In this document: positions 23,784 through 52,838 of the stretch, piece by piece
Layout of the letters: every line of letters starts with the position of its first letter
How positions within the stretch are numbered: position 1 is the first letter of the stretch
Source: an uncultured Candidatus Woesearchaeota archaeon
GTDB lineage: Archaea; Nanobdellota; Nanobdellia; Woesearchaeales; UBA10107
Length of the DNA: 64,000 nt
Reading direction: 5' to 3'
Assembly (NCBI GenBank): GCA_963835585.1
Contig: CAWIGF010000001.1
Location: 226,281 to 290,280 of the forward strand
The notes under the pieces: model-generated
Seen by the model: only the letters and a program-made list of their open reading frames with translations
What the model was told of the DNA's origin: nothing
The model's database searches: none
Translations under genes and position numbers: made by a program

Positions 23784-24287
23784 CTAGTGGGATTTGTTTA
23801 AAACCGAATAGTGAAGTTGTATGGTGTTCTTTGACAACTTTGATATGTCGATAAGGTTCAATTTCTTCTCGAAATTTTCTCCTTGAAAGAAAGGTATACC
23901 CTTGCCAAGAATCAAAGGCTCAACATCGATATATAATTCGTCAATAAGTTCTGGTTTTATGAAAGATGAGTTTAATCTGCTGCCTCCCGCGACAAGAACT
24001 GTTTTGAATCCTTTTCTTTTGAGAATAGTAATTGCATCTTTCGGGGATTTAGCTGCAAGAACGTCTCTTATTTTTCGGTGAGTCACGACAATGACAAGAG
24101 GATTCCCAAAATTCTTGAATCCGTCTTCCTTCATAAGTTCATATGTTCTTCTCCCAATTACCAAATTTCCTGTTTTTTTCACAAAACTTGAGAAACTTTT
24201 CCATTCTTCCTTTGACCAAGGAGTTTCATCATTTCTTTTTGCAATGTATCCATTAACACTCATTGCCATATAAAGAATTACTTTCAT
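23784..24287 (-). CDS. dihydrofolate reductase-like / RibD C-terminal domain protein
   Basis: The N-terminal VILYMAMSVNGYIAKRNDETPW and VAGGSRLNSSF motifs are characteristic of the RibD_C/DHFR-like fold. Confidence 0.55.
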   Translation of the reverse strand: MKVILYMAMSVNGYIAKRNDETPWSKEEWKSFSSFVKKTGNLVIGRRTYELMKEDGFKNFGNPLVIVVTHRKIRDVLAAKSPKDAITILKRKGFKTVLVAGGSRLNSSFIKPELIDELYIDVEPLILGKGIPFFQGENFEKKLNLIDISKLSKNTIQLHYSVLNKSH

Positions 24288-24967
24288 TCTATTACCGTTC
24301 CACTGAATTTATTTCCCAGAACTACGTTTTCAAGATTTTTGAGCCCTTTAACGATGATTGTCTTAATTTTTGCCCTCCTGATTATTTTTGCACCAGACTG
24401 GTCAAGAACAAAGTGCTGGCCAGCCTTGAATTTGATCCTTGATACAATTTTCCAGAAGTCATCAAAGGATATTCTCGGGATGAATTTTGCGTTATCATAC
24501 TTATTTGGGTCTTTGTTGAACAATCCAGGAACATCAGTCAAATTGATAAACATTTCCGCATCAAGGTATTCAGCAATCTGCGCTGCTGTGGCATCACTAG
24601 TCATGTCCGGCTGGAATCCCAATGCACCAACTACAACGACATTCTTCCTTTCCAGGTCTTTTTTTATTTCTAGTAATGAATCCGGCATGTCGATGTTGCC
24701 ATGAATCACTAATGATACAAGAGTCGCATTTAATTTTGTGGTCCTTATTCCAACCAAGCATGCCATCGCATCTGAAGTGCTCAAATCTTCCGCAGCTTTG
24801 ATGTAATCCCTTGCTATTTTTCCACCGCCACAAACAAGAACCAACCTGTTGTTTTTCTTTAGTTTGTCGACTGTTTTCCTCAGATTTCTCAGAAAATCAG
24901 TATCAATCTTGCCAGGAACAATCGCACTGCCACCGACCGAGATGACGTAGGTCTTCATAGTAAACAT
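24284..24967 (-). CDS. pyrH: uridylate (UMP) kinase, archaeal type
   Basis: Amino-acid-kinase-family motifs VISVGGSAI, VCGGGKIARDYI, IRTTKLNATLV and VVVGALGFQPDMTSDATAAQ match the pattern of crenarchaeal PyrH. Confidence 0.8.
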   Translation of the reverse strand: MFTMKTYVISVGGSAIVPGKIDTDFLRNLRKTVDKLKKNNRLVLVCGGGKIARDYIKAAEDLSTSDAMACLVGIRTTKLNATLVSLVIHGNIDMPDSLLEIKKDLERKNVVVVGALGFQPDMTSDATAAQIAEYLDAEMFINLTDVPGLFNKDPNKYDNAKFIPRISFDDFWKIVSRIKFKAGQHFVLDQSGAKIIRRAKIKTIIVKGLKNLENVVLGNKFSGTVIE

Positions 24968-25001
24968 AAAAGATGTACTGTTTATAAATTTTACAGAGTG
25001 A

Positions 25002-26561
25002 TCATTCGTCTTTCAACAATTGTTCAACAACAGCGGCAAATGCAGGCCTGGTGATGAAGACACCTATCGTGATTCCAAGCATTGATGTCAATGCGAATCC
25101 CTTTAACAAGCCGGCTCCTGCAAACAAGAGCGGGAACATTGATGCAAGTCCTGTGAAGTATGATGCAAGGATTATGAAGAAGGCATTCTTGATTCGCTTC
25201 AGCCAATTGACTTCTTTGTTTCTATGAGCAGTCGACTCATCAACTATGACAATCTGGGAATCAACACCAGTTCCGACTGCGACAAGAATACCTGCTATTG
25301 CAGGGATATCGATGTTCCACCCTATCAAAGCAGCAACACCCAGAATGATTACTACCTCTGAGATTCCAGTAATCATGATAGGCACTACGACTTGCGCTTT
25401 CCTGTATCTTATGTAAATAATCAGAGTAACAGCAATTATCGCCAAAAACATCATGACAATAGAATCATGAATAAACGTTTTTCCAAGGATAGGAGAAACT
25501 GTATCGACCTCATCTATGTTTAACTTTACTGGAAGGCTTCCCGTAATCAATATGGTTTGTAATTTTTTCATATTATCAAGCGCATTTAGTTCTGATTCCT
25601 GTTCCGTAGTTCCTGTTCCTGGACCAGAGATAGCTATATCAGTTACAGCCTGCCCCCTCAATGACGATGATATCTGAAGCTGATCAACAGGTTGGTCGTC
25701 TAAGAACAGAGAAATTGGCTCCGACAAATACTGACCAGTGACAGTCAAGTCCTTCGTGACATTTGCCATTCTTTGCGCTGCCGCATTGCTCAATGATATC
25801 GAAAACCGGAACTGAGAATCCCATTCGGTTGCAGACGCCTGCGTTGGTGCCTGGTATGGCGACAAACCGGAGCAATCAGCTGACCTGCACACATAAGTTA
25901 TGTCGTTGCCGCCCTTGAAAACAGAGATATTTCCAATTTTGGCTTCAAATTTTCCCTGCTTTGCGATCAAATCTTTTACTTCCTGGTCGTTGCCGCCCGC
26001 AACATCGACCTCAATGAAAGTTTTTCCCTCCAAATCACTTACTTGCTGGATTGTGACATCAGTAAGACCAAACACATTCAATCGCTCGCTTAAGCTAGCT
26101 ATCAAAGATCCCATATCTTGAGTAGAAAGTTTTTCCGCCGGCTCAAGAAGCATCCGAGTCCCGCCCTGCAAATCGAGCCCTTCACGTATATTTGAAGTCG
26201 GTGCATTTACGACGACCAAACCCAGATTTGTTTGGTTAAGTTGAGGTGTTACTTGATAGAGACCTTTGCTTGTTTTTATCTGGACCGGAACACCAGGAGT
26301 CATGTTTGCAACAACTGCATAGAAATCATCGGTATTCTTTATTGGTTCATTATCAATCGCTGTAATTATCTCCTTACTCAATGGAGTTCCCGTCGGCTTT
26401 GGTGTTGGGATCCCAGCAAGATATGCTGAGCTGTTCAATCCAATGGATTGAATGGAAACACCTTTGTTGAAAGGTCGTGGATTTATTGCAAGGAGCGAAA
26501 GGAGAAGGAAAATAATAAGAAGTATTACCCTTCCTTTTGTAAGTATCCTCTTAAGCTCCAT
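25002..26561 (-). CDS. secD: protein-export membrane protein SecD
   Basis: 519 aa. N-terminal TM, a large periplasmic domain, and six C-terminal TM helices. It follows secF with a 10-nt overlap. Confidence 0.75.
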   Translation of the reverse strand: MELKRILTKGRVILLIIFLLLSLLAINPRPFNKGVSIQSIGLNSSAYLAGIPTPKPTGTPLSKEIITAIDNEPIKNTDDFYAVVANMTPGVPVQIKTSKGLYQVTPQLNQTNLGLVVVNAPTSNIREGLDLQGGTRMLLEPAEKLSTQDMGSLIASLSERLNVFGLTDVTIQQVSDLEGKTFIEVDVAGGNDQEVKDLIAKQGKFEAKIGNISVFKGGNDITYVCRSADCSGLSPYQAPTQASATEWDSQFRFSISLSNAAAQRMANVTKDLTVTGQYLSEPISLFLDDQPVDQLQISSSLRGQAVTDIAISGPGTGTTEQESELNALDNMKKLQTILITGSLPVKLNIDEVDTVSPILGKTFIHDSIVMMFLAIIAVTLIIYIRYRKAQVVVPIMITGISEVVIILGVAALIGWNIDIPAIAGILVAVGTGVDSQIVIVDESTAHRNKEVNWLKRIKNAFFIILASYFTGLASMFPLLFAGAGLLKGFALTSMLGITIGVFITRPAFAAVVEQLLKDE

Positions 26562-27453
26562 TGGTTATAGCCTTCTTTTCCTTTCTCTCTACGTACATCC
26601 TCAAAAGCGCCGCGTTGAACAGCCACGTATATATCATGTCACCAACAAGACCCCATCCGAGAATGAACATAATTTGTCTGAGGGATTCTGCGCTTGTTGA
26701 ATAGTATGCGACAATAACAGCTGCCAATGCTGCCAATGACATCGTCAATCCAGTGGGAACTGCCGTCGCCATTCTCTCTGAAACAGTCCCTTCCTTCCTC
26801 TTGAGAACCCTTGTCGTCAATAATATATCGGTATCAACCGAATAACCAATCAACATCAAGAACGCCGCAACGCCCGCAGTCGTCAATCGCATGTTAAACA
26901 AATTGAATACTGTCAACGAGAATAGCGCATCCCCAAATACACAGAATACTGCGTAAAAGCTTGGAAGCGGCTCCCTGAAATAAATGTAAATGACAATTGC
27001 CATAAGAACAAAAGCCACAATTATCGAATAAATTGCTTGCTTGAAAAACGAAGCGCCGAGCGAGGGTCCGGTCGTATCAACAGTATATTCTGTTTCCTGG
27101 AGAGGACCTGTTATGGTCTCAACCCCTGCTACAAGATCATCTGCGGATACTCCAGATGCCTCAACAATGACCCCTCCAGATTGACCTTGACCGAAACTTC
27201 TCACGTTGATATCTGCGTTAGGATACTTTATAGCAAAATAATTACTCAGGTCCTTTACGTTGGCTTGTTTTGATACAGAAAGCGTAGTACCGCCCTTAAG
27301 AGAGACGCCTTTTGACACAAAATCACCGTGCTGTACATAATAGACAGCTAGCAGTGTTAAACACAATATGAGAATAGTGATAGGTATCAAGAAAAGCTTC
27401 TTGTATTGCTTATCATAGACATTAGCGGTCTTCTCAAATAGCCTTTTAAACAT
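26551..27453 (-). CDS. secF: protein-export membrane protein SecF
   Basis: 300 aa. N-terminal TM, a small periplasmic domain, and a C-terminal six-TM bundle with GYSVDTDILL. Paired with secD. Confidence 0.75.
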   Translation of the reverse strand: MFKRLFEKTANVYDKQYKKLFLIPITILILCLTLLAVYYVQHGDFVSKGVSLKGGTTLSVSKQANVKDLSNYFAIKYPNADINVRSFGQGQSGGVIVEASGVSADDLVAGVETITGPLQETEYTVDTTGPSLGASFFKQAIYSIIVAFVLMAIVIYIYFREPLPSFYAVFCVFGDALFSLTVFNLFNMRLTTAGVAAFLMLIGYSVDTDILLTTRVLKRKEGTVSERMATAVPTGLTMSLAALAAVIVAYYSTSAESLRQIMFILGWGLVGDMIYTWLFNAALLRMYVERKEKKAITNGA

Positions 27454-27548
27454 GGATAAAATAAGACTACGATGTTTTTATATATCTTTCGTGGCATCGA
27501 GAATTGCCAAATCGATGACTTTCTAATCAATAAATATCAAGAAATGCA

Positions 27549-28295
27549 TCAAGAAACATCAGGGGGCATTACATCAGGGGGAGAACTTCTCATTTGGCGA
27601 TTAAATTGATTAAATAAGTCATTCCTCTCCTCAGGAGACATTCCCCTAATCGAATTAACAAAGTCATTCCTCCTCTCAGGAGGTATTCTGTTAATCATTT
27701 CATTCATCATATCATCCTGAGTCATTCTCTGCTGCGGCTGGGCGGAACGATTCGATATATTTTGAGAAGGAGAAGGAGTACGTGGCATTGGTCGCGATGT
27801 CTCAGTAACACTTATGGCAACCTCTTTTGAATCAGTAATGTACCAAATTACAAGCCCAAAGAAAACAATACCAATGATTGAATAGAACAACCCAGGATAT
27901 GAGGAAATAAATGAATTCAACAAATCAACACTTATGAATCCTGTGATAATTATGAAAAGTAACACACAAATCAAAAAAAGAACCACATTGTTCTTCTTTT
28001 CGACTTTGAATCCAAATATCCCAGCGACAACGTTAATGGCAAGTATACCTACTATGACAATTATGAATCTAGAGATAAAAAGTGAATAATCAACACCTGC
28101 GACAAACGGAAGCATCATCAACGAAACAATTACGGAAAAAACGGGATTAAGTTTTTTGTTTTTCTCTCCAAGAAGCATCGTCTTCTGTAGAATTCCATAC
28201 AGAACTGCAAAAATAAGTATGAACGGAATCAGATAATCGAAAATACCAATATTGGAGAGTGCCACAAACGAACCCGTGAGGAGATTTGTCGCCAT
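27549..28295 (-). CDS. multi-pass membrane protein, paralog family member D (same family as 1229-3029), with repeat-containing cytoplasmic tail
   Basis: The N-terminal LSNIGIFDYLIPFILIFAVLYGILQKT matches the family motif. The tail has two PPERRNDFVNSIRGM / SPEERNDLFNQFNRQM repeats and a C-terminal PPDVMPPDVS. Confidence 0.55.
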   Translation of the reverse strand: MATNLLTGSFVALSNIGIFDYLIPFILIFAVLYGILQKTMLLGEKNKKLNPVFSVIVSLMMLPFVAGVDYSLFISRFIIVIVGILAINVVAGIFGFKVEKKNNVVLFLICVLLFIIITGFISVDLLNSFISSYPGLFYSIIGIVFFGLVIWYITDSKEVAISVTETSRPMPRTPSPSQNISNRSAQPQQRMTQDDMMNEMINRIPPERRNDFVNSIRGMSPEERNDLFNQFNRQMRSSPPDVMPPDVS

Positions 28296-28477
28296 ACAGT
28301 CAAAATAAATTCCGAGGTATATAAAATAATCTTATGCAAAATTTATTTACTGGTATGTTTTTTTTAGCGCACGAATCATTTAATTATCTTCTATATAGAT
28401 AATAAATAGTCTAAACATAACTAAAACATGGCAACATCCTCAACACATTAAATTCATGGTTTTCCGACCCAGGGATA

Positions 28478-29449
28478 TTATTGAACATCAGGGGGATTGA
28501 TGTCAGGAGGGCCTTTTCTCGTGTAGAAGATCAAGAAGACATTAGCAATTATGATTACCGCTACTGCAATAATCAATAGCAAAAGGGGCGAGCCAAATCC
28601 TTGATTTGTCCCTGTAATCGCATTGCCATTTGTGTTTCCTTTTATAACGGAAAGCGTGTCGGGATTCAGCTGTACTGAGAATGTATTATTCGATGCCTTT
28701 CCATTGTAGTTCAGTGTCGTAATCAAATTATAAACGCCTGGCTGAAGATTTGTAGTATCCCAATATCCTGTCAGCGTCGTAGATGATAGTGAAGGAACAT
28801 CAACTGGCAAAGTCTGGAAATTTCCATATACATTGCTTGCGGAATTCTCCACGATAATGCTGGTGGATACGTTATCAATCTGATCTTGCCAGTGATTGTA
28901 GACATTGATATTCACCCTGTTAATTTTTCCCAATATAAACTGAGGGGAACTGATTGATTCAATCTCAATGAATTTACCCCCTACTGTGAAAGATGATTGA
29001 AGGTTTATTGTTTTATTTCCATACGCAATTGTCGCAAGTGCTACATACTCCCCAGGAGGAACATCCAGAGATATTGAGTTTGTCTCATTTTGCTCTGCAC
29101 CCGGATCCAAGGAATTGTAATTATTTTGGTATGTCAATATCGTGTCTCCACTTGCATTGACAATCTGAACATCCGCGGAAGGCGTTACCGTCTCCAATCC
29201 TTCATTCGAGAACGTGTATATCATCTCAAGTTCATTCGCCTCGGAATCATTTGTGATGAATGTCGCAGTCATGTACTGTTCGGGAACAGAGACATTGGTG
29301 ACTGGCTGATGAACGGTGGTGAATTCTCCTGGGACTGTCATCCCTTGCGCCTGTAAACATGATAGAAGAACAACAATAGAAATCAAGAAAAGATTCTTGC
29401 ATTGCTTGCTATAGATATTAACGATTCTCTCCAGCAGTCTTTCAAACAT
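28478..29449 (-). CDS. cell-surface protein (paralog of 30709-31965) with SecF-derived N-terminal signal anchor and C-terminal TM anchor
   Basis: The N-terminal MFERLLERIVNIYSKQCKNLFLISIVVLLSCL mimics the SecF N-terminus MFKRLFEKTANVYDKQYKKLFLIPITILILCL. The C-terminal 290 aa are about 70 percent identical to 30709-31965 and end with QGFGS, a TM helix, RKGPPDINPPDVQ. Confidence 0.65.
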   Translation of the reverse strand: MFERLLERIVNIYSKQCKNLFLISIVVLLSCLQAQGMTVPGEFTTVHQPVTNVSVPEQYMTATFITNDSEANELEMIYTFSNEGLETVTPSADVQIVNASGDTILTYQNNYNSLDPGAEQNETNSISLDVPPGEYVALATIAYGNKTINLQSSFTVGGKFIEIESISSPQFILGKINRVNINVYNHWQDQIDNVSTSIIVENSASNVYGNFQTLPVDVPSLSSTTLTGYWDTTNLQPGVYNLITTLNYNGKASNNTFSVQLNPDTLSVIKGNTNGNAITGTNQGFGSPLLLLIIAVAVIIIANVFLIFYTRKGPPDINPPDVQ

Positions 29450-29505
29450 AGGTAAAATGGAACTGTAATGCTTTTATATATCTTTCTCGATTTTTGGCGT
29501 GAGAT
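29342..29505. repeat. duplicated secF promoter plus 5' coding segment (partner 27334-27510), about 75 percent identical, fused to the surface protein gene
   Basis: The DNA around both start codons is alignable (…atcaagaaaag[a/c]ttcttg[c/t]attgctt…ttatatatctttc…). Both encode MF(E/K)RL(L/F)E… and a TM helix ending in LLxCL. Confidence 0.65.
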
Positions 29506-29532
29506 ATAATCAAATAGTCTGTTCAGAAAAGT

Positions 29533-30159
29533 TCAAAATAGCAATGAAAACAATCCGGAATAAACCTTAAACCCATCGAATCCGGGAATAGGAAGCATGT
29601 TGAATATGAACAGAACCATATTGATTTTGCTTGTCAGCATCAAGAATATGTAGTACTTCTGGGATAACTTCTTGTTCTTGATAATCCACGCTGAGCCGAG
29701 CCACAGAACAAGATTGACGAAAGGACCTGCAAACGCTATAAGTGTTTGCTGCAGCGCCGTCGCGGTTGCTCCAAAATCTACATAAGCAGGCACAAAAAAC
29801 AGGAACGAGCTGCCAAAGTAAGTCATGATAATTGCTATGATCATAAGAATTGATGCGAAATCGAAGAAAGGCATCCCATGGATAATCTTATTTATTGAAA
29901 TTGCCGAATAAAATGTCGCATTGAAACCGAACGCCATGGCCACGAACTTGTGCCCAAGTTCGTGAAGCAGGATTGCCGGTCCAATCAAACATATCGAGAA
30001 ATAAAAATCATGCCAAGAGAATCTATTTTTATGAATTATGCCGTATTGATCTGGTTTCTTGAATTTGTTGAACTTAGAAAAATAGCCTGAAAAGATATAC
30101 CCTATGCATGCGGACATAATTATGACATCCAGGAATTCAGGGATTGTAAAAATAGCCAT
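29533..30159 (-). CDS. M50/site-2-protease-like intramembrane zinc metalloprotease (minimal form)
   Basis: HELGH within a TM helix plus a downstream NMLPIPGFDG (the LDG motif of S2P); about 6 TM segments; 208 aa. Confidence 0.65.
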   Translation of the reverse strand: MAIFTIPEFLDVIIMSACIGYIFSGYFSKFNKFKKPDQYGIIHKNRFSWHDFYFSICLIGPAILLHELGHKFVAMAFGFNATFYSAISINKIIHGMPFFDFASILMIIAIIMTYFGSSFLFFVPAYVDFGATATALQQTLIAFAGPFVNLVLWLGSAWIIKNKKLSQKYYIFLMLTSKINMVLFIFNMLPIPGFDGFKVYSGLFSLLF

Positions 30160-30266
30160 ATATTATGTTCTCCCATTGTTGTTTAAAAAAGTTGCTAAGA
30201 AATAACTTGCACAAGCAGAAAAATCAAAAGCAAATATTTTTAAACTAATGCTATTCAGCCTTCGGT

Positions 30267-30701
30267 ATGGCAAATAAGACAGCAAAGAAAGGCGATACTG
30301 TTCGCGTGGACTATACAGGCAAGCTCGAGACCGGGGAGGTCTTCGACTCTTCTAAAGGAAAAGAACCCCTTGAATTTGAACTTGGTTCTGGAAAAGTTAT
30401 ACCTGGATTCGATGATGGAATCATAGGAATGAAAGAAGACCAGGAAAAAGACATTACAATCAGCCCTGAAAAAGGGTATGGAAACAGGAGCGATAATTAC
30501 ATCAAAGAAATTCCTAAAAACAGCGTTCCAGAAAAAATAAAGTTGGAAAAAGGAATGATTTTATTATTCAAGCGACAGGATGGGATGACTATGCCATGCA
30601 CAGTAAATGAAATAGGGAAGGATACAATAAAAGTTGACTTTAACCATCCACTCGCAGGAAAGACACTCAAATTCAACGTGAAATTAATTCACATCAAATA
30701 A
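30267..30701 (+). CDS. FKBP-type peptidyl-prolyl cis-trans isomerase
   Basis: GDTVRVDYTGKLETGEVFDSS...LEFELGSGKVIPGFDDGIIGM is the FKBP domain signature; 144 aa. Confidence 0.85.
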   Translation: MANKTAKKGDTVRVDYTGKLETGEVFDSSKGKEPLEFELGSGKVIPGFDDGIIGMKEDQEKDITISPEKGYGNRSDNYIKEIPKNSVPEKIKLEKGMILLFKRQDGMTMPCTVNEIGKDTIKVDFNHPLAGKTLKFNVKLIHIK

Positions 30702-30708
30702 TTCTCTC

Positions 30709-31965
30709 TCAACTTACGTTGCTTGGCTGGTATTCTGGTTGCTGTGGAGGCATAGATGGAGATTTTGGAGGACCCCTTCTCAAATAGAAAATCAGGAATA
30801 TATTTACAATTACAAGAACTGCTACAGCAATTATCAACAAAGAGAGAGATGATCCAAATCCTTGATTTGTCCCAGTTACCGCATTACCATTTATGTTTCC
30901 TTTCGTGACGGAAAGCGTGTCAGGATTTACCTGCATTGAGAATGTATTCTCTGAAGCCTTTCCATTGTAGTTCAATGTCGCAAACAAATTATATGCGCCC
31001 GGTTGTAGATTTGTCGTATCCCAATATCCTGTCAGCGTCGCAGATGATAGTGAAGGAACATCAACTGGTAAAGTTTGGAAATTTCCATATACATTGCTTG
31101 CAGTATCCTTTACGACAATAGTTGCAGATACACTATCAATTTGATCTGACCAATGATTGTAGACATTGACGTCCATCCTGTTAATTCTGCCAAGTATAAA
31201 CTGCGGAGAGCTGATAGACTCGATTTCAATGAATTTACCTCCCACAGTAAAAGATGAATGAAGATCTATTGTTTTGTCCCCGTATATGATTGTCGTAAGG
31301 GCGACATACTCTCCTGGAGGAACTGACAAGAGTATCGATTTTGTTTCCTTTCTCTCTATGCCCGGACCTAAAGGATCATAATCAGTATGATAAGTTGCTA
31401 TTGTATCTCCGTTTTGATTGATAATCTGAACATCCGCGGAAGGCGTTACCGTCTCCGATCCTTCATTCGTGAAAGCGTACGTGAGCTCAAGGTCATTCGT
31501 TTCCGGATCATTTGTAGTAAATGTAGCAGTCATGTACTGTCCAGGGATAGGCACATTGATTACTAATTGATGAACAATGGCCACCTCCCCAAATATAGTA
31601 GTCCCTTGAGGCTGAACAGAGGAAGAAGATTGCGCCGTGACTATTTCAACAGTATTTGCGCCAGGCTGCAACACAGCAAAGGGAATGTCAACTGAATACG
31701 AAATCGTTGCCTGGTCGTCAGTTGGACTAAGATGGATTGAACTGTTCGACAGATTTACATAACTTTGCCATTCCCCTCTTACATATATCGTCAAGTCAAG
31801 ATCTTGGTGTTCCGTGTTCATTATTGTAAAACTATAATCGTGTTTGAAGTCAGCAGTAGTATCTGCGACTATTTTTGCCGGCGTAACACCGAATGCATGC
31901 GCTGAGACAAGCGAACTAAGTAAAAATAACACCCACACAAAAATAAATCCAGTTCGCTTCATCAT
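30709..31965 (-). CDS. cell-surface protein with signal peptide and C-terminal TM anchor; paralog of 28478-29449
   Basis: Signal peptide MMKRTGFIFVWVLFLLSSLVSAHA. The C-terminal GFGSSLSLLIIAVAVLVIVNIFLIFYLRRGPP is followed by a Pro/Gln tail. The start overlaps the stop of the upstream giant-gene segment by 4 nt. Confidence 0.65.
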   Translation of the reverse strand: MMKRTGFIFVWVLFLLSSLVSAHAFGVTPAKIVADTTADFKHDYSFTIMNTEHQDLDLTIYVRGEWQSYVNLSNSSIHLSPTDDQATISYSVDIPFAVLQPGANTVEIVTAQSSSSVQPQGTTIFGEVAIVHQLVINVPIPGQYMTATFTTNDPETNDLELTYAFTNEGSETVTPSADVQIINQNGDTIATYHTDYDPLGPGIERKETKSILLSVPPGEYVALTTIIYGDKTIDLHSSFTVGGKFIEIESISSPQFILGRINRMDVNVYNHWSDQIDSVSATIVVKDTASNVYGNFQTLPVDVPSLSSATLTGYWDTTNLQPGAYNLFATLNYNGKASENTFSMQVNPDTLSVTKGNINGNAVTGTNQGFGSSLSLLIIAVAVLVIVNIFLIFYLRRGPPKSPSMPPQQPEYQPSNVS

Positions 31966-34900
31966 GATTCGACTCCATACACAGTTATTGTTGATACCTT
32001 CAGGCCAGGAGGTTCACCATTTGGAACAGTCACATTGAGATCAATTGCTGCAGTATTGTTGTAAGGAGGGAAATTAAGATAAGCAATGACAGACTTTGGA
32101 GTTGATGTCATAGGCGTCCAAGTCATATTTGAATACGTTGTATTAAATGCGTTAAACGTATTACTTGAATTAGTTGTATTGGCTTTGAACATGAATGTTG
32201 TGTTCCCTAATCCTGAAAGGTTAAACAATGTTGTCGCATTGATTGATACATTCACGAGCACGTTCGAAAGGCTTTGAACTATGAACGGAGGTGGATTGTT
32301 GTTTACTGTTGTGTTGGTTTGTCCAGGAATCATGTTTCCGAAATTAGAGAAGTTCTGCGTCAGGTTTATGTTGACATTTACTTGTATTGAGAAGTTGAAT
32401 GTTGATGAGAATGAGCTGTTCAATGTTCCATCGTTTGCCTCAACGTTCCAGAAATATACTCCACACTTATCATTCGTTGACAGAACAGGAGTTGTGTAAT
32501 TTGTCGCGCTCACTCCTGTGAAGAACTGATTTGCACAGAACTGGCTAGTTAGATTGATGTTGTAAGTCAACGTATCACCGTCAGCGTCAGATGATGCATT
32601 CCACAATAATAAAGGCTGAATTGCAGTTAGCGAACTATTGCCATTGCTTGGAAGGACCAACACTGGAGCAGTAGGTGCTGAGTTAAGAACAACCAAATTA
32701 TTAGAGCAAACAGTTGATCCGTCCTGTGTTCCGTCGTTCGGTGTTATGCATGCAGTCCAATTTTGACCTTTTTTCAACATAGACGAGTCCATGATGTATG
32801 ATTGGTTGTTGTAGATGTTCAGGATTTCCTGTGCAGACAATGTACGATTGAAAATCATTACGTTGTCTATTGAGCCGTTGAAATACGTTGGAAGCTGTGA
32901 AGCTATTCCGATTGTGAAATCTCCTGCATATCCTTGCGTGTTTCCCGCCGACATAGAACTCGAGGTTCTTTGTGATCCATCAACCCATATTTGCGCAGTC
33001 CCGTTTGTATTCCAAGTTCCGACTAAAAAGTGCCACTTACTGTCGTTGTAAGCATCTGTTGAGTCAGTTATTCCTCCTTGCGGGTAAAGATACATAGTTA
33101 TATGTCCGGCTTGTATATACAATTCCTTGTCGTGCGTTCCTCCAGTTGGGAGACCATTGGTAAATCCTAATATACTTCCTGAGTTACTTGTTTTAAACCA
33201 CGCCACGAGTGAAAGATTGTATACTACCTCACTCGCAGTTGTGTTTGACCATATGTAACTATTATTTCCATTAAACTGATAATCTCCGAATCCGTTGTAT
33301 CCACCTGTTGAATTCCATGTTGCATTGATTACAGTTCCATTATTTCCATAAGTTGAGTAATCCCTTGTCCATGTCGAGTTGGAGCCACCTTCGAATGGCA
33401 TGTTCAAGACAGCTATTGAAGTTCCATTCAATTTCCAGTCAGTGATGTTGATGACCGTATAACCACCTGGGCTTGTTGAGTTCCAAGATAGAGTTAGATT
33501 TTCAGAGGAGGTATTTGTTCCAAACGTCGAGTTCAAAAGGACATTTCCAACAATGAAGGGAAGCTGACGCGTCGCGTTCACGAAGAATGTGAAAGTCTTG
33601 TTGTTTGCAGGATTGGATCCATTTACAACGACCGAGACTGTGTATTGGCTACCTGTGCTGAATAATTGGCTGAACATGCTTGTGAATCCTGATGTCAACG
33701 TCTGTACAAATGTCAGGATATTGTTGATGAACCAGTTGAACGTGAGCGCTTCTGGATATAATTCAGTTGCGGTTATGTTGAATGTCAAATTGGTTGACGC
33801 TGAAATATTCGTACTTATCGAAACATTGATCTGATTCGTGATGTTCTGCAATCCTCCTGTCGCGTTAGGATAGAATGACGTCAGACTGATGTTGTTCAGG
33901 ACAAGCAAGGAATTGGAGCAGACAGTACTTCCATCTTGCGTTCCATCATTTGGAGTTATGCAGGATGTCCAGTTCTGGTTTGGTTGAAGCATGGATGAGT
34001 CCATAATATATGATTGGTTTTGATATATGTCTTTAATTTCTTGAGGAGATAATGTGCGATTGAAAATCAGAACATTGTCTATTGAGCCGTTGAAGTATAC
34101 ACCATCACCTCTCTTTCCTATATATGCAATTGACATAGAACTCGTTGAAGTCGCATTAGCAACTAAAACACCATTGACATATAGCAGCTGGGTTGTGGCA
34201 TTCTGCACAGCAGCAAGATAAGTCCAAACTCCCGGCGTTGCTGCATACGCACCATTAGCAGCAGAATCAAATTGCCAAGCCCCACTACCACCCTCCTGAA
34301 GCCAAGAGTTTGTTGCGGTTCCATTATTTATTATAGCTGCACCCACTACTATGCTTGTCGGTTTCGCCCATACACTAAGGGTATACACGCTAATAGCGGA
34401 AGGCAAGCTTGCATTCACAAAGCTGCTGATGCCGTTGAATTGATAATCTCCGAATCCGTTATACCCGTCAGTCGAATTCCACGTCGCATTCATAACAGTC
34501 CCATTATTGCCGTATGTGGAATAGTCTCTTGTCCATGTGGAGTTAGAGCCGCCTTCGAAGGGCATGTTCAAGACAGCAATCGAGGTTCCACTTATTCTCC
34601 AGTCAGTTATGTTGATTAAATTAGATGTATATGATGTTGAGTTCCAAGATACAGTAAGATTGTCAGTAGTGAGGTTATTTCCCGATGTAGAATTCAACAA
34701 CACTACGCTGTTCACAATAAATGGAGGTTGTGATGTCAGATTCAAATAGAAACTGAATGTCTGGTTGTTCGCTGAATTGCTTCCATTGACTGTCACCGAG
34801 ACATTATATAATCCAGATGTGCTGAAAAGCTGGCTGAACATGGATGTGAACCCAGATGTCAGTGTCTGCACAAATTTCAGGACATTATTTATGAACCAGC

Positions 34901-35291
34901 TGAATGTGAGTGCTTCTGGATAAGACTCTGTTGCTGTTATGTTGAATGTCAAATTGGTTGTTGCTGAAGTATTCGTATTTATCGAAACATTGATCTGATT
35001 CGTGATGTTCTGCAATCCTCCTGTCGCGTTAGGATAGAATGACGTCAGACTGATGTTGTTCAGGACAAGCAAGGAATTGGAGCAGACAGTACTTCCATCT
35101 TGCGTTCCATCATTTGGAGTTATGCAGGATGTCCAGTTCTGGCCTGGCATGAGTTCCTGCGAAGCCATGACGTAACTTTGATTATGATAAATATTAAGGA
35201 TTTCTTGAGGGGATAATGCTCGGTTGTATATTTGAACATTATCAATGATTCCCTGTATAATTTGACCAACCAGGACTATGATCCATTCCAA
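31962..35291 (-). CDS. C-terminal segment (1109 aa) of the giant LamG-repeat surface protein locus; out of frame with the upstream segments, so a continuation or pseudogene fragment
   Basis: It starts mid-domain (…IDNVQIYNRALSPQEILNIY) with no signal peptide. It carries LamG_3-like repeats and shares identical blocks of 150-400 nt with 36937-37330. Confidence 0.5.
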   Translation of the reverse strand: MEWIIVLVGQIIQGIIDNVQIYNRALSPQEILNIYHNQSYVMASQELMPGQNWTSCITPNDGTQDGSTVCSNSLLVLNNISLTSFYPNATGGLQNITNQINVSINTNTSATTNLTFNITATESYPEALTFSWFINNVLKFVQTLTSGFTSMFSQLFSTSGLYNVSVTVNGSNSANNQTFSFYLNLTSQPPFIVNSVVLLNSTSGNNLTTDNLTVSWNSTSYTSNLINITDWRISGTSIAVLNMPFEGGSNSTWTRDYSTYGNNGTVMNATWNSTDGYNGFGDYQFNGISSFVNASLPSAISVYTLSVWAKPTSIVVGAAIINNGTATNSWLQEGGSGAWQFDSAANGAYAATPGVWTYLAAVQNATTQLLYVNGVLVANATSTSSMSIAYIGKRGDGVYFNGSIDNVLIFNRTLSPQEIKDIYQNQSYIMDSSMLQPNQNWTSCITPNDGTQDGSTVCSNSLLVLNNISLTSFYPNATGGLQNITNQINVSISTNISASTNLTFNITATELYPEALTFNWFINNILTFVQTLTSGFTSMFSQLFSTGSQYTVSVVVNGSNPANNKTFTFFVNATRQLPFIVGNVLLNSTFGTNTSSENLTLSWNSTSPGGYTVINITDWKLNGTSIAVLNMPFEGGSNSTWTRDYSTYGNNGTVINATWNSTGGYNGFGDYQFNGNNSYIWSNTTASEVVYNLSLVAWFKTSNSGSILGFTNGLPTGGTHDKELYIQAGHITMYLYPQGGITDSTDAYNDSKWHFLVGTWNTNGTAQIWVDGSQRTSSSMSAGNTQGYAGDFTIGIASQLPTYFNGSIDNVMIFNRTLSAQEILNIYNNQSYIMDSSMLKKGQNWTACITPNDGTQDGSTVCSNNLVVLNSAPTAPVLVLPSNGNSSLTAIQPLLLWNASSDADGDTLTYNINLTSQFCANQFFTGVSATNYTTPVLSTNDKCGVYFWNVEANDGTLNSSFSSTFNFSIQVNVNINLTQNFSNFGNMIPGQTNTTVNNNPPPFIVQSLSNVLVNVSINATTLFNLSGLGNTTFMFKANTTNSSNTFNAFNTTYSNMTWTPMTSTPKSVIAYLNFPPYNNTAAIDLNVTVPNGEPPGLKVSTITVYGVES

Positions 35292-35734
35292 GATAAAAAG
35301 GATCTATAAGTTATGGAGATTGGTCCATGTCGCTGCAATACTATTGTGCATCGAGCGCTCCGTTGACAAAATGGATATATTTATGTTGTTGTCATGTGAA
35401 GGCAACATGGTACCATATGTCCTGTGTTCAGGTTCGTGCTCCCTGTGAGTTGGGCTCCTGCCGTTTATTCTCACCATAAGAGTATTTGAGGAGCCAGTAT
35501 AGAACCCGAATGAAATCTCTCCCTGCGAACCTGTTAGAGGTCCTATTGAAAAATAGCCCAGACATTGAAATTACTAACTGGCAGAGTATACCCAAGCCAT
35601 GAAAGTAATATTAAGGTTGAGTTAAGTTGAGACTCTGGCTGAATGGTATTGTAATGTATGATGAATTTACATTATGTGAAATAATATGCGCCGTGACCAT
35701 CATATCCTCACTGTCATATTCCATGTCGCATTGA
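35292..35734 (-). pseudogene. decayed copy of one adhesin repeat unit (homologous to 37590-38160) with multiple indels; no open frame
   Basis: DNA is alignable to 37590-38160 at over 90 percent identity, but several 1-3 nt indels interrupt every frame. Confidence 0.55.
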
Positions 35735-37021
35735 CTACAGTTCCATTATTGCCATATGTAGAATAGTCCTCTGTCCAAGTAGAAGTAGAGCCCCTTCAAA
35801 TGGCATGTTTAGAACTGCAATTGAAGTTCCGTTCAATCTCCAGTCTGTTATATTGATTAAATTAGATGTATACGATGTTGAGTTCCAAGATACTGTTAGA
35901 TTTTCATATGTAAAGTTTGTTCCATAAGTTGAATTTAAGATGACATTATTAACAAAAGGTGGTTGTGATGTCAGATTCAAATAAAATGTGAATGTCTTGT
36001 TGTTCGCTGGATTAGAGCCATTTACAATTACCGAAACATTATATGATCCGGATGTGCTGAACAGCTGGCTGAACATGGATGTGAATCCAGATGTTAGTGT
36101 CTGCACAAATTTCAGGATATTGTTGATGAACCAGTTGAACGTGAGCGATTCCGGATAAGATTCAGTTGCAGTTATGTTGAATGTCAAATTTGTTGCTGCT
36201 GATGTGTTTGTATTTATTGAGACATTGATTTGATTCGTGATGTTCTGCAATCCTCCTGTAGCATTAGGATAGAATGATGTCAGGTTGATTTTGTTAAGGA
36301 CGAATAATGAGTTGGAGCAGGCAGTACTTCCATCTTGGGTTCCATCATTTGGAGTTATGCATGCTGTCCAGTTCTGGCCTGGCTGCAGCATTGATGAGTC
36401 CATGATGTATGATTGGTTTTGGTATATGTTGAGGATTTCTTGCGGCGTTAATGCTACATTGTAGATCTGGACACTGTCAATCGAGCCATTGAAGAATTGA
36501 TTTATTCCAGGATCACCAGAACCAATCCATGTATTCGGACCTACGTAAGTTATAGGACCGGATGCAGCAATCGTTCCATTCTGGCGCCCGTTGAGATATA
36601 CAGTCAGTGCTGAACCGTTATATGTCATTGCGATGTAAGACCATGTTTTAATTGGAATAGCTGTATTTCCACTGAGTGATATCCATGCTGAACCATTGTA
36701 GATGGCGGCGCCGATATTCTGCGCCAGTGTATTAAACTCATCACCGAACGCCAAATAAAATGGTGCATTTTTGGAAATGACCGTCCCTATTTGTGTTGTA
36801 GTTGGATATATCCATGCAGAAAGAGTTACGGCATTTGCTAATGTAGGAACTCCCAATATAGGAATTATATAACTATTATACCCATTGAACATATATGCCC
36901 CATGTCCGTCATATCCTCCAGTCGAATTCCACGTCGCATTCATAACAGTCCCATTATTGCCGTATGTGGAATAGTCTCTTGTCCATGTGGAGTTAGAGCC
37001 GCCTTCGAAGGGCATGTTCAA
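35735..37021 (-). CDS. internal segment (428 aa) of the giant surface protein locus, LamG_3-like repeats; separated from the upstream ORF by a short frameshifted stretch
   Basis: The ORF opens on TTG inside a repeat, and homology continues seamlessly from the 3835-aa ORF. Ends in IDSVQIYNVALTPQEILNIY-type motifs. Confidence 0.5.
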   Translation of the reverse strand: MNMPFEGGSNSTWTRDYSTYGNNGTVMNATWNSTGGYDGHGAYMFNGYNSYIIPILGVPTLANAVTLSAWIYPTTTQIGTVISKNAPFYLAFGDEFNTLAQNIGAAIYNGSAWISLSGNTAIPIKTWSYIAMTYNGSALTVYLNGRQNGTIAASGPITYVGPNTWIGSGDPGINQFFNGSIDSVQIYNVALTPQEILNIYQNQSYIMDSSMLQPGQNWTACITPNDGTQDGSTACSNSLFVLNKINLTSFYPNATGGLQNITNQINVSINTNTSAATNLTFNITATESYPESLTFNWFINNILKFVQTLTSGFTSMFSQLFSTSGSYNVSVIVNGSNPANNKTFTFYLNLTSQPPFVNNVILNSTYGTNFTYENLTVSWNSTSYTSNLINITDWRLNGTSIAVLNMPFEGALLLLGQRTILHMAIMEL

Positions 37022-37330
37022 GACAGCAATCGAGGTTCCACTTCATTCTCCAGTCAGTTATGTTGATTAAATTAGATGTATATGATGTTGAGTTCCAAGA
37101 TACAGTAAGATTTTCAGTATGTGAGGTTATGTTCCCGATGTAGAATTCAACAACACTACGCTGTTCACAATAAATGGAGGTTGTGATGTCAGATTCAAAT
37201 AGAAACTGAATGTCTGGTTGTTCGCTGAATTGCTTCCATTGACTGTCACCGAGACATTATATAATCCAGATGTGCTGAAAAGCTGGCTGAACATGGATGT
37301 GAACCCAGATGTCAGTGTCTGCACAAATTT
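36937..37330. repeat. about 390-bp near-identical intragenic repeat (partner 34477-34867) spanning the frame-disrupted junction of the giant gene
   Basis: Direct comparison shows over 95 percent identity. The 37021-37127 stretch carries three 1-nt insertions relative to the 34570-34680 copy. Confidence 0.7.
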
Positions 37331-40300
37331 CGATACTTGATTCACGAACCAAGTGAATGTCAATGGCTCGCTGCTTGACTCTGATGCAGTAACATTGAAT
37401 GTTAGATTTGTGGTTGAGGAGGTGTTTAAGTTGAGCGAAACATTAATTGCACCATTCGTTGATTGAACTAGTCCTGATTGATTTGGATAGAAAGAAGTGT
37501 AATTGAGCATATTTAATGTGAAAACAGAATTTGAACAGACAGTCGATCCGTCTTGGGACATATCATTCGGTGTTATGCATGCTGTCCAGTTCTGGCCTGG
37601 CATGAGTTCCTGCGAAGCCATGACGTAACTTTGATTATGATAAATATTAAGGATTTCTTGAGGGGATAATGCTCGGTTGTATATTTGCGCATTATCTATC
37701 ATTCCTGTAAATGACCAACCAGGACTATGATATATTCCAAGATAAAAAGGATTATTAGTTATGGAGATTGGTCCATTCGCTGCAATACTATTGTCAAGCG
37801 CTCCGTTGACAAATATGGATATATTTATGTTGTTGTATGTGAAGGCAACATGGTACCATTGTCCTGTGTTCAGGTTCGCGCTCCCTGTGAGTTGGGCTCC
37901 TCCGTTTATTCTCACCATAAGAGTATTTGAGGAGCCAGTATAGAACCCGAATGAAATCTCTCCCTGCGAACCTGTTAGAGGTCCTTTGAAAAATAGCCCA
38001 GCATTGAAATTACTAACTGGCAGGTATACCCAAGCCATGCAAGTAATATTAGGTTGAGTTAAGTTGAGACTCTGGCTGAATGGTATTGTAATGTATGATG
38101 AATTTACATTATTGAAATAATATGCGCCGTGACCATCATATCCTCCTGTCATATTCCATGTCGCATTGACTACAGTTCCATTATTGCCGTATGTAGAATA
38201 GTCCTCTGTCCAAGTAGAAGTAGAGCCCCCTTCAAATGGCATGTTTAGAACTGCAATTGAAGTTCCGTTCAATCTCCAGTCTGTTATGTTGACAATGGAA
38301 ACATTATTTGAGTCGGTTGAGTTCCAATAGACAGTCAAGTTCTCAGCAGTCGTATTCGTCCCATATGTTGAATTGAGTAGTATTGATGTTGCATTCGGCG
38401 GTAAGAAGGAAGTTGCATTCAGAAGGAATGTAAATGTTGCATTATATGGCATGGAACCATTCACAACGACAGTCACATTATACAAGCCACTTTTACTGAA
38501 TAAATTGGAGAACATATCTGTAGATCCTGATGCCAATGTCTGGACGAATGTCGATACTTGGTTCACGAACCATGTGAATGTCAATGAAGGCTGACCGCTT
38601 ATTGCCGTAATATTAAAGACTAGATTAGTAAATGGAGAACTGCTTTCTATAATGCTTACATTTACCTGACCAGAAGTAAGACTCTGCAGCTGTCCCGTTG
38701 CATTTGGATAGAAATTGGTTATCTGAACGTTGTTAATATACAGATTGTTTGAACATACAGTTGTTCCGTCACTTGTTCCATCGTTTGGAGTTATGCAGGA
38801 TGTCCAGTTCTGGCCTGGAGAAAGCATTGATGAGTCTATGACATAGGATTGGTTGTTGTATATGTTCAGGATTTCTTGTGGAGACAATGCCTGATTTAAG
38901 ACAAGAACATTATCAATTGTTCCATTGAACCTATTTCCTGTGTTGTTAGCACCTATGTAGAAACTTGCGTTTGCAACTGCAGGCATCGTCGAAAGATTTA
39001 CAGATAATACTGATTTGCCCATGAAGTACGCAGTATAGTTCCAGACGCTTGTTGCTGTTCTTAACCTGGTGACGGCGACAAAATTCCACCTTTTTGCCGA
39101 AGTCACGTTGATGTTCATGAGAGTATAGGTTGTCGCATTCATGTATCCTGCAATTATCCCACACGTGCTGTTCATGAATATACTTAATTCAGGATGATAC
39201 AAAACTCTTGGATAATTCGAAACAGTATTATTGCAGTTATTTGCATAGAACCAAGCCATAATTGTGTAATTAATCGTTTCGTTGAGATTCATCGTCAATG
39301 TTGTGTTGATAAATCCAGTTCCATTAAACATGTAAGCGCCGAATCCGTTGTATCCACCTGTTGAATTCCATGTTGCATTGATTACAGTTCCATTATTTCC
39401 ATAAGTTGAGTAATCCCTTGTCCATGTCGAGTTGGAGCCACCTTCGAATGGCATGTTCAAGACAGCTATTGAAGTTCCATTCAATTTCCAGTCAGTGATG
39501 TTGATGACTTTTGCGTTAGTTCCAGGCGTGACGCTCCAATAAGTGGTTAAATTTTCAAATGATGTATTATATCCATATGTTGAATTGAGCAGTACGAAGC
39601 TTATGGAAGGAGGCAGATATGTTGCATTGACAAAGAATTTGAAAGTGACATTGTTCGCTGAATTGCTTCCATTGACTGTCACCGAGACATTATATAATCC
39701 AGATTTGCTGAAAAGCTGGCTGAACATGGATGTGAACCCAGATGCTAATGTTTGTACAAATGTTAATACTTGATTGATGAACCATCTGAATGTCAACGGC
39801 TCGTTGCTTGATTCTGAAACAGTAACATTGAATGTTAAATTATTTACTGTTGATGAGGCTCCAGTAATGCTTACATTGATTTGACCAGAGGAAATATTCT
39901 GAACCTGTCCCGTTGCATTCGGGTAGAATGATATGTATTTGATTCTGTTGAGCGTGAAGACTGTGTTGGAACACACCGTACTTCCATCTGTTGTTCCGTC
40001 ATTTGGAGTTATGCAGGCTGTCCAATTCTGGTTTGGCTGAAGTTCTTGCGAAGCCATAATATATGATTGATTATTATAAAGATTGAGGATTTCTTGGGAA
40101 CTCAATGATTTATTGAACACCAATAAGTTGTCGATTGATCCATTAAAGTAACCTCCGTTGCCTCCTCCTAATGCTGCGTAAGGTACTTGACCACCAGTCA
40201 ACGTGTTGCCAGAGTCATACCTGGAAGTATTGTATACTCCATTCACGTACCAGGATATGTTAAGATTATTGTACACAAAAGTAAGCATTACCCAGTTGGT

Positions 40301-51635: not shown

Positions 51636-52838
51636 GTGCTGAGGGAAATGAATATCATGAAAAAGAGCTGGATAGCACTCATTGTTTTTCAAATTATTCT
51701 TATTCAAGGAATTCATGCCATAGGGTTACGAAGCGACAGTTTATTGGTTGATATCAACTATGTCCCTGGTTTTGAGGGGACATACGGGTATGATGTCATA
51801 CCATTGAACTCGAACCCGACCGATGTTCAGGTTTATGTGAGGGATGATCCAAATGACGGCTACAAAACTCTCCTTGCCAAATATTTCACACTTAGTGATA
51901 CTTATTTCAAACAAATAAAACCTGGAGACATGCCATATTTCACCGTAACTGTAAAACTACCCCCTGGAATAATTGAACCAGGAGGCCACAGGGTAATGGT
52001 GGGAGTTAGAGAATTGGCACCGCCAGGTAGCGGAGGATTTTCAACAGTCACATCCATAGAAGCTATATTTACCATACACGTTCCTTATCAAGGACAGTAC
52101 TTGAAATATTACTTGAGCGCAGATAATGTAAATGAAAATGAATCAATACCCATCAAACTCATCCTTAACAATTTAGGGACAGACAACATAAACAGCTTGT
52201 ATGCGGACATCGACGTTCTTGACCAAAATAATGCAACAGTCGCTTCGACGACAACAGAATCCATTACCTTGGCAACACAGGAAAGCACAACATTGCTCGC
52301 CCAAATTCCCCCGTTTAAAGTCCATCCAGGAAACTATGTCATAAGAGGAACTATCCATTATGATGGGAAAGAGGAAATAGCGTACAACACATTCAAAGTA
52401 GGAAATCTAAATTTTGACATAATCAACGAAACTAATGAGATATATACAGGGAGCATTGATCCTATTTTTGTTACAGTAGCAAGCCAGTGGGCAAATATAA
52501 TAAATAATGTGTACGCAGATATAAAAATAGGAAACGACACACCTGTGCAAACACTTTCAGAAACCGTAAACGGATTTGATACCCAGACACTTACTGCTTA
52601 TTTCGATGCCACAAACGAGACAAAGGGCATAAAACCTATGTCAATCACACTGCATTACCAAGACAAAACAACTACCAAGGATACGCAGATAATGGTCCTT
52701 GAACAAGGCATCACAGAATTTGCCAAGAATATGTCCACGACGAGCATCATATTCATCTTTGTAATACTCACCGTAATAATAATAAACATAACATTATTCA
52801 TATTGTTGATAAAGAAAAAGGATGAAAAAGAAATCTAA
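51636..52838 (+). CDS. secreted protein with signal peptide, Ig/CARDB-like beta domains and C-terminal TM anchor (S-layer/sheath candidate)
   Basis: Signal peptide KKSWIALIVFQIILIQGIHA. C-terminal IIFIFVILTVIIINITLFILLIKKKDEKEI. Confidence 0.5.
   Translation: MLREMNIMKKSWIALIVFQIILIQGIHAIGLRSDSLLVDINYVPGFEGTYGYDVIPLNSNPTDVQVYVRDDPNDGYKTLLAKYFTLSDTYFKQIKPGDMPYFTVTVKLPPGIIEPGGHRVMVGVRELAPPGSGGFSTVTSIEAIFTIHVPYQGQYLKYYLSADNVNENESIPIKLILNNLGTDNINSLYADIDVLDQNNATVASTTTESITLATQESTTLLAQIPPFKVHPGNYVIRGTIHYDGKEEIAYNTFKVGNLNFDIINETNEIYTGSIDPIFVTVASQWANIINNVYADIKIGNDTPVQTLSETVNGFDTQTLTAYFDATNETKGIKPMSITLHYQDKTTTKDTQIMVLEQGITEFAKNMSTTSIIFIFVILTVIIINITLFILLIKKKDEKEI

Follow-up and report, generated by a model that had tools for sequence, protein, structure and literature searches.

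A 133-nt secF block joined in frame to the body of a surface-protein gene in a Candidatus Woesearchaeota archaeon

In a stretch of 64,000 nucleotides (nt) from an uncultured Candidatus Woesearchaeota archaeon (in the following called the window, whose numbering is used for all gene coordinates), a gene termed here gene A carries at its 5' end a 133-nt block of the protein-export gene secF, which is joined in frame to codons 118 onward of a neighboring surface-protein gene, termed gene B. The point of joining corresponds to the linker past the first domain of the B protein. All three genes lie on the minus strand, where they are transcribed in the order B (30709-31965), A (28478-29449) and secF (26551-27453). 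The following features make up the chimera and its parents, BRE denoting the transcription factor B recognition element:

26551-27453, minus strand: secF, 300 amino acids (aa), donor of the head of A; Pfam SecD_SecF_C at 1.8e-29, archaeal SecF NCBIfam models at 3e-60
28478-29449, minus strand: gene A, the chimera, 323 aa
30709-31965, minus strand: gene B, 418 aa, donor of the body of A
27358-27490, minus strand: donor block, consisting of promoter (27454-27490) and secF codons 1-32 (27358-27453)
29354-29486, minus strand: captured copy, consisting of promoter (29450-29486) and A codons 1-32 (29354-29449)
27476-27490 (secF) and 29472-29486 (A, identical copy), minus strand: BRE/TATA 15-mer GAAAGATATATAAAA, located at -37 to -23 in both
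28505-29353, minus strand: B-derived body of A, codons 33-315, ungapped against B codons 118-400
30766-31614, minus strand: donor segment of B, codons 118-400, starting inside a low-confidence linker between domains 1 and 2
29351-29356, minus strand: junction at the TTA-CAG boundary, in frame, where codon 32 (TTA) corresponds to SecF codon 32 and codon 33 (CAG) to B codon 118 in a three-way codon alignment

The repeated secF block and the B-type body

A repeat search of the window returned the block as an ungapped direct repeat of 133 nt with 74% identity (27358-27490 versus 29354-29486). Using blastn against the whole window, it was recovered with 74.4% identity over 133 nt at an E value of 5.6e-20, while no third copy was found. 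Codons 1-32 of the donor block encode the cytoplasmic N-terminus of SecF and the first 13 residues of its first transmembrane helix (TM1). Both edges of the repeat are sharp, with 28 of 37 positions identical at -37 to -1 versus 6 of 30 at -38 to -67 on the upstream side, and 71 of 96 positions in codons 1-32 versus 21 of 84 in codons 33-60 on the downstream side, which corresponds to 74-76% identity inside the block versus 20-25% beyond either edge. The 5' edge of the BRE can be regarded as a true breakpoint, because only those 6 of 30 positions agree where neutral homologous sequence should keep about 50% (p = 7e-4), an expectation derived from the divergence at synonymous sites. Within the coding part, SecF and A share 18 of 32 residues in a colinear, in-frame alignment, and nucleotide identity amounts to 75, 78 and 69% at codon positions 1, 2 and 3, respectively. 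Such near-equal identity argues for descent from one sequence, as selection for a hydrophobic peptide would not yield this pattern.

Downstream of the junction, the body of A shares 77.4% nucleotide and 74% amino acid identity with B, and in the protein alignment residues 30-316 of A correspond to residues 115-401 of B. According to the codon alignment, no filler bases are present at the TTA/CAG boundary, nor is any microhomology recognizable there after about 25% divergence. The B protein comprises a Sec signal peptide, domain 1 (residues 30-113), a disordered linker (115-127), domains 2 and 3, a stalk, a transmembrane helix (373-396) and a tail. In its AlphaFold model (predicted local distance difference test score 68 overall, about 80 in the domains), the junction falls within the inter-domain linker 115-127. 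Protein A, in turn, is composed of the SecF head (residues 1-32), a B-type linker beginning with QAQG, two beta-sandwich domains, a stalk, a C-terminal transmembrane helix (288-311) and the tail GPPDINPPDVQ; its AlphaFold2 model displays two complete beta-sandwiches and the transmembrane helix. A is not a SecF, lacking any SecD_SecF_C match and showing SecF homology up to codon 32 only. It is a member of the B family, to which it is homologous in beta-sandwich domains 2 and 3, in the stalk and in the membrane anchor at the C-terminus, while B residues 1-117 are missing from it and, with them, the signal peptide of the family, the AxA|xG[VI]xP mature N-terminus and domain 1. Neither A nor B gave any Pfam or NCBIfam match above threshold. 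Their best Pfam hit is WxLIP_HBD (PF11797), which with 16.6 and 16.5 bits, respectively, stays below the cut-off of 28.9, and the remaining matches are to generic Ig-like folds. The closest named relatives of the A/B family are thus the WxLIP proteins (DUF916/DUF3324) of Enterococcus, at a score below the cut-off and equaled by other Ig-like folds; the A/B family differs from these in its archaeal occurrence and its link to a giant LamG protein. The term adhesin, which the sequence-only reading described below applied to A, thus goes further than these matches.

An earlier, sequence-only reading of this DNA had already noted that the 5' end of secF recurs at the 5' end of A with about 75% identity, and the alignment confirms this as a colinear in-frame block rather than low-complexity A/T sequence. 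The N-terminal peptides it quoted for A and SecF are correct as well, and the body of A is indeed a paralog of 30709-31965. The extent of the repeat had been overestimated, however, with about 60 nt upstream plus about 110 nt of coding sequence instead of 37 nt plus 96 nt (32 codons). Likewise, B does possess an ordinary signal peptide of its own, but the extra N-terminal part put at about 150 aa is in fact 117 aa long and consists of the signal peptide and one domain. As for the proposed capture of SecF's cytoplasmic N-terminus, TM1 and promoter, the N-terminus and a core promoter were recovered in A, while TM1 is represented by only the first 13 of its 21 uncharged residues.

Ancestry of gene A and its predicted promoter and export signal

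The direction of transfer can be read from the relatives of both parents. The secF product has 4699 homologs in a protein search, and the 36 nearest Woesearchaeota/Nanoarchaeota orthologs that were aligned conserve the head motif MFK..L.K...YD.KYK.LL.IP. As the nearest SecF orthologs start with the same motif, the head is native to SecF. The 14 amino acid differences in the head were polarized with these 36 outgroup sequences. A has lost the SecF-conserved residues at K3E, D14S, Y17C and P24S, it keeps the ancestral L6, I9 and V26 that have since changed in the resident SecF, and it has the derived residues R4, N11, F21, L22 and C31 in common with the resident SecF. Taken together, the polarized residues point to a copy taken from this lineage's own secF, which has since been evolving free of SecF constraints, and SecF is therefore the donor of the head. 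For the B family, word-indexed homolog searches with A and B gave just 4-5 proteins, and a full HMMER scan with B was needed, which yielded 2050 relatives. Among the best 149 representatives of these, nearly all are 375-430 aa long, align end to end and possess ordinary signal peptides, and none of the 149 carries a SecF-like N-terminal head. A is the sole N-terminally truncated family member near the top of the matches, and the best non-self match of B is only 38% identical, compared to 74% for A. These data support a full-length, B-like architecture as the ancestral state, and with it the earlier proposal of gene chimerism between a SecF head and the body of a surface-protein paralog.

The promoter part of the block is best understood in relation to the other promoters of the window, most of which combine a BRE of the GAAAG type with a TATA box centered some 27 nt ahead of the ATG and show no Shine-Dalgarno spacing (e.g., upstream of 1271, 3622, 10824, 23752 and 56813), and the genome thus appears to be largely leaderless. 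At secF, the TATA box is likewise centered at about -27 from the ATG. The BRE/TATA 15-mer is conserved between secF and A at 15 of 15 positions (p about 3e-5 under neutrality), and the secF/A pair is an outlier among 351 promoter pairs of the window, with 28 of 37 identical positions compared to a mean of 15.7 (standard deviation 2.4) and 22 for the next best pair. The sequence features of an archaeal leaderless BRE/TATA promoter are found, namely a purine-rich BRE and a TATA box centered about 26-27 nt before a predicted start of transcription that coincides with the ATG. Judged by these elements, the upstream capture comprises exactly the BRE/TATA plus the leaderless initiation region, i.e., a minimal core promoter of 37 nt. 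The situation of B is a different one, as its ATG and the stop codon of the preceding LamG gene coincide within the 4 nt ATGA (31962-31965), which is also the case in the related loci L002, L005 and L006 introduced below. B therefore lacks a promoter of its own, and the captured leaderless promoter plausibly uncouples the expression of A. Regulatory rewiring of A to a SecF-type promoter, as suggested earlier, is accordingly a plausible reading of the sequence. The same 4-nt ATGA overlap between a B-family gene and a LamG gene was seen in every genome examined (L002 1976-1979; L005 4560-4563), which suggests that the two form a conserved, translationally coupled pair.

Regarding export, the head of A was divided by inspection into an n-region of residues 1-19 (net charge +2), an h-region of residues 20-32 (LFLISIVVLLSCL) and the c-region QAQG with A at -3 and G at -1. 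A charged n-region, an h-region within the range of about 7-15 residues and small residues at -3/-1, as known from cleavable Sec signal peptides, are thus all present. The uncharged run spans 13 residues in the head of A compared to 21 in SecF TM1 and 12-21 in B-family signal peptides, while the n-region of 19 aa exceeds the B-family median of 6. With only 13 TM1 residues captured, and with a B-derived QAQG behind them that conforms to the -3/-1 rule, the head has the appearance of a cleavable signal peptide, albeit one with an extended n-region, and not that of a signal anchor.

Age and selection were assessed from synonymous (dS) and nonsynonymous (dN) divergence according to Nei-Gojobori. 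The head differs from SecF by a dS of 0.71 and a dN of 0.26, the body from B by a dS of 0.88 and a dN of 0.15 (dN/dS 0.17), and resampling 31 codons at a time from the body gave dS values of 0.35-2.06. No difference in age can hence be discerned between head and body, in agreement with a single event, and this event is old. Despite a dS of about 0.9, the open reading frame (ORF) of A with its 323 codons is intact. The intact ORF, the low dN/dS of the body and the fully conserved BRE/TATA together suggest that A has been kept by selection and that its promoter is likely functional.

Gene neighborhood in the window and in related genomes

Around the chimera and its parents, the window contains the following neighboring genes:

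25002-26561, minus strand: secD, overlapped by secF
27549-28295, minus strand: gene X, 248 aa, encoding a protein with multiple transmembrane segments, between A and secF
29533-30159, minus strand: M50 peptidase gene (Pfam Peptidase_M50), 46 nt upstream of the promoter block of A
30267-30701, plus strand: FKBP gene, between the M50 gene and B
31962-48634 including all pieces, minus strand: LamG-rich giant surface-protein gene, beginning at 31962, upstream of B

Gene X matches no Pfam or NCBIfam family above threshold, and an Rfam scan of 24000-33000 gave no match. Elsewhere in the window, a third, distant B-family paralog (24% identity) is located at 51648-52838 on the plus strand, and two tandem X-family paralogs (31-34% identity) are found at 1271-1834 and 1838-2458, also on the plus strand. 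The giant LamG gene is broken into three ORFs at 37127-48634 (3835 aa), 35735-37021 (428 aa) and 31962-35291 (1109 aa), and the gaps between them translate as repeat-unit sequence in shifted frames with stops. These splits represent frameshifts due to either pseudogenization or indel errors within tandem repeats of about 1.16-1.24 kb.

For comparison, four related loci were available, which are L002 (GCA_964572885), L004, L005/L006 (GCA_965231065) and L088. All four have kept the order LamG giant, B-like gene, (ion channel), FKBP gene on the opposite strand, M50 gene, (X in L005), secF, secD, AA-kinase gene, Nop gene and fibrillarin gene, and in none of them is an A-like gene present between the M50 gene and X or secF. 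In these relatives, M50 is the immediate upstream neighbor of either secF or X. As the four loci maintain their order without gene A, A is regarded as a lineage-specific chimera with both parents intact. Hence, the N-terminal domain and signal peptide of a surface protein were not replaced, as had been assumed in the sequence-only reading; A is instead an extra gene. In line with this, no ortholog of A was found among 5.8 billion proteins, and the exact 42-mer across the junction gave 0 matches in the GTDB species genomes, the source genome not being among these representatives. Within 8 kb on either side of 76 other SecF loci, no comparable second SecF head was detected either, only weak hydrophobic matches with E values of 0.005-0.05. 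The best of these weak matches (in L040) was checked and rejected, as it lies on the non-coding strand of other genes.

Gene X shows a patchy distribution. An ortholog of 203 aa (37.6% identity over 154 aa) is located between M50 and secF in L005, while X is absent from L002, L004 and L088. In L005, elements of the GAAAATAA(T/A) type lie to either side of the X gene (7277-7320 and 7920-8005), and X may itself be a unit that is mobile or was inserted into the spacer between M50 and secF. Another SecF-bearing contig, L087, carries in its positions 1-230 a divergently oriented phosphoesterase-like gene upstream of secF instead of M50, showing that synteny upstream of secF is unfixed even among near relatives. 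The SecF leader of L087 (..GCCATTTAAT..) is closer to the copy in A than to that of the resident SecF.

Origin of the chimera and its meaning

The arrangement at this locus is probably best explained by A being a lineage-specific chimera of two local donors, which arose via the join point of a tandem duplication and would be Sec-exported from a SecF-type promoter. The duplication would have extended from codon 118 in the middle of B to codon 32 of secF, with A representing its join point. A duplication of this kind necessarily yields a gene with secF head and B body that has an unaltered B before it and an unaltered secF behind it, all on one strand. Afterwards, the redundant FKBP-M50 copy downstream of A and one copy of X upstream of A would have been lost. 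The truncated B copy would have been left without promoter, start codon and export signal, all three of which the SecF head could supply within 133 nt. With TM1 cut to 13 hydrophobic residues and followed by QAQG, an n-h-c signal peptide would have resulted, with predicted cleavage after A34 or G36. A would then be Sec-exported and display a two-domain beta-sandwich ectodomain on its C-terminal transmembrane helix, and its transcription from a SecF-type leaderless promoter would be independent of the LamG-B operon. Several observations accord with such an origin. Two colinear parental blocks with sharp breakpoints, intact parents flanking A on the same strand and absence from syntenic outgroups are found, as is characteristic of chimeras formed at duplication joins, and the distance of 46 nt between the M50 stop codon and the promoter of A resembles the spacing between M50 and the SecF promoter in the relatives, which is consistent with duplication. 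Two further features at the borders of A are relevant here:

28381-28408, no strand assigned: palindromic element TTATCTATATAGAAGATAA, 65 nt downstream of the stop codon of A, between A and X (nhmmer E value 0.025)
29506-29520, minus strand (left copy), and 28399-28412 (right copy): direct repeat AGACTATTT(G)ATTAT, 14 of 15 nt, flanking A

The palindromic element is the sole significant match in the window to an element that immediately precedes the SecF TATA box in five relatives, and its position downstream of A is where the duplication model leaves a second copy after deletion. Functionally, it could be an operator or a terminator.

Of the competing explanations, chance similarity, A/T-rich low complexity or convergence of two strong promoters with hydrophobic N-termini is virtually ruled out. 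A GAAAG/TTTATA consensus is indeed common to the promoters of this genome, and the segment from -22 to -1 by itself (13/22) barely exceeds other promoter pairs, but neither can account for 133 ungapped nucleotides at the given E value, for the similar identity at all three codon positions, for derived residues common to A and the resident SecF only, or for the absence of a comparable second head at all 76 other SecF loci. Such an origin was already refuted by the blastn E value, the edge profile, the outlier position of the promoter pair and the shared derived residues. That A is a non-functional relic, i.e., a dead and unexpressed duplication product, appears improbable. It would agree with the restriction of A to a single genome and with the seemingly frameshifted LamG gene nearby, which indicates that decay occurs at this locus; yet the ORF has stayed intact at the high dS, purifying selection acts on the body, the BRE/TATA 15-mer has kept all of its positions against neutral expectation, and the head has retained its hydrophobicity and its net positive charge. 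Less easily dismissed, if still unlikely, is an uncleaved signal anchor, as proposed in the sequence-only reading, by which A would be tethered at both ends. The head does originate from a genuine TM1 with positively charged cytoplasmic N-terminus, and its n-region is unusually long for a signal peptide; however, a run of 13 uncharged residues is short for spanning a membrane stably, the adjacent QAQG with its small residues at -3 and -1 gives the head the geometry of a cleavable signal peptide, and the helix-kinking P24, invariant in SecF, has been lost.

A serious alternative, to be considered possible although on the less probable side, concerns the route by which the same chimera was formed. 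It could have arisen by composite copy-and-paste, involving template switching of replication among three nearby sites, or in two steps, with a copy of B first entering the space between M50 and X and a short SecF patch subsequently taking the place of its 5' third. The lack of FKBP or M50 remnants downstream of A, the small size of the SecF patch (just 133 nt, sharp at both edges) and the 14/15-nt direct repeat around an insert of about 1.1 kb, resembling a target duplication, would all fit such an insertion. On the other hand, the order and orientation B, A, SecF are exactly those of a duplication join, which a free insertion would produce only by coincidence, the equal dS of both pieces demands that two steps were close in time, and the duplication model predicts the SecF-upstream element at the place downstream of A where it is seen.

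The tandem-duplication origin nevertheless has several points to its disadvantage. No second copy or remnant of FKBP or M50 was found downstream of A (Smith-Waterman comparison with shuffled sequences, z < 0), and this putative route therefore needs two clean deletions; in place of remnants of the genes between the breakpoints, only the copy of the SecF-upstream element and the marginal 14/15-nt repeat are seen. This repeat itself reaches a p value of only about 0.01, its score being attained in 18 of 2000 shuffled sequences and in 22 of 3000 stretches drawn at random from the genome. The nearest SecF (L087), which is 70% identical, lies on a 2.6-kb contig with different synteny, and the event is thus not tightly bracketed. 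Moreover, the similar C-terminal tails of X and A are unexplained by the model. For the head, the dN/dS of 0.36 is measured jointly with SecF and alone gives no proof of constraint on the head of A, and we infer promoter use, export and cleavage of A from its sequence. Concerning the tails, both X and A end in PPD[VI]xPPDV[SQ]* (27555-27581 and 28484-28510, with 21 of 27 nt identical), and no further motif of this kind occurs in any of the six frames of the window. In relatives, tails of the B type (L005: QPPPISPPAIQ) are similar to the tail of A, and no such tail is present in the X ortholog of L005, which makes the tail of X look acquired. A multi-step model with two duplications and three deletions, which would also cover the A-like tail of X, was set aside as unparsimonious.

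Formation of genes at duplication joins is by no means new. Promoter capture and gene fusion at tandem-duplication join points are the classical mechanism in bacteria (PMC11111574, which cites Anderson and Roth 1978 and Blount et al. 2012). As in A, a coding segment without promoter comes to lie there behind the promoter of a gene from the opposite end of the duplication, and the parents stay intact. A differs in having gained also the 5' codons of its donor and an export signal instead of a promoter alone, and it is natural, ancient (dS about 0.8), archaeal and leaderless, with its intervening duplicates undetectable and its mechanism inferred. In Drosophila, chimeric genes formed by tandem duplication have been surveyed as well (PMC4069613). 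Similar to A, they combine the 5' end and regulatory sequence of one gene with the 3' part of its neighbor, resulting in an altered expression context; they are, however, eukaryotic genes with introns and untranslated regions and mostly young polymorphisms, while A is prokaryotic, fixed and old, and a 133-nt cassette was enough. In literature searches, no archaeal precedent was found. A further point of comparison is offered by the vsa/vlp-type loci of Mycoplasma, in which one promoter and signal-peptide 5' end is common to different surface-lipoprotein bodies. These systems make use of site-specific recombinases and near-identical cassettes, with reversible switching among silent copies. The A locus, in contrast, has a single copy with 74% identity (26% diverged) and a housekeeping donor, no recombinase gene is present nearby, and no inverted repeats of at least 16 nt bracket A, i.e., no convincing invertible switch was found.

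Hence, no new principle is involved, as duplications that capture a promoter and 5' end are well documented from both bacteria and eukaryotes. It is conceivable, though rather doubtful, that SecF TM1 and the leaderless promoter were exapted as a complete 133-nt 'express-and-export' cassette, in which TM1 would have become a cleavable signal peptide. In this host-dependent DPANN archaeon, a truncated, stand-alone form of a surface protein that is otherwise bound to an operon would thereby have come under SecDF-type expression. If true, and if such minimal cassettes are generally portable in leaderless archaea, reduced genomes would repeatedly acquire new surface proteins along this route. The locus offers a record at base-pair resolution of the birth of a secreted or surface protein in a reduced archaeal genome, for which the promoterless and start-less two-thirds of an operon-internal gene were combined with 133 nt of a housekeeping neighbor. 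It illustrates how compact the requirements in leaderless archaea are, consisting of a BRE/TATA, an ATG and about 30 codons, and it suggests that TM1 of a polytopic protein can be trimmed to a signal peptide. With B in the LamG operon and A behind a SecF-type promoter, a concrete pair is at hand for the regulatory divergence of surface proteins in DPANN symbionts.

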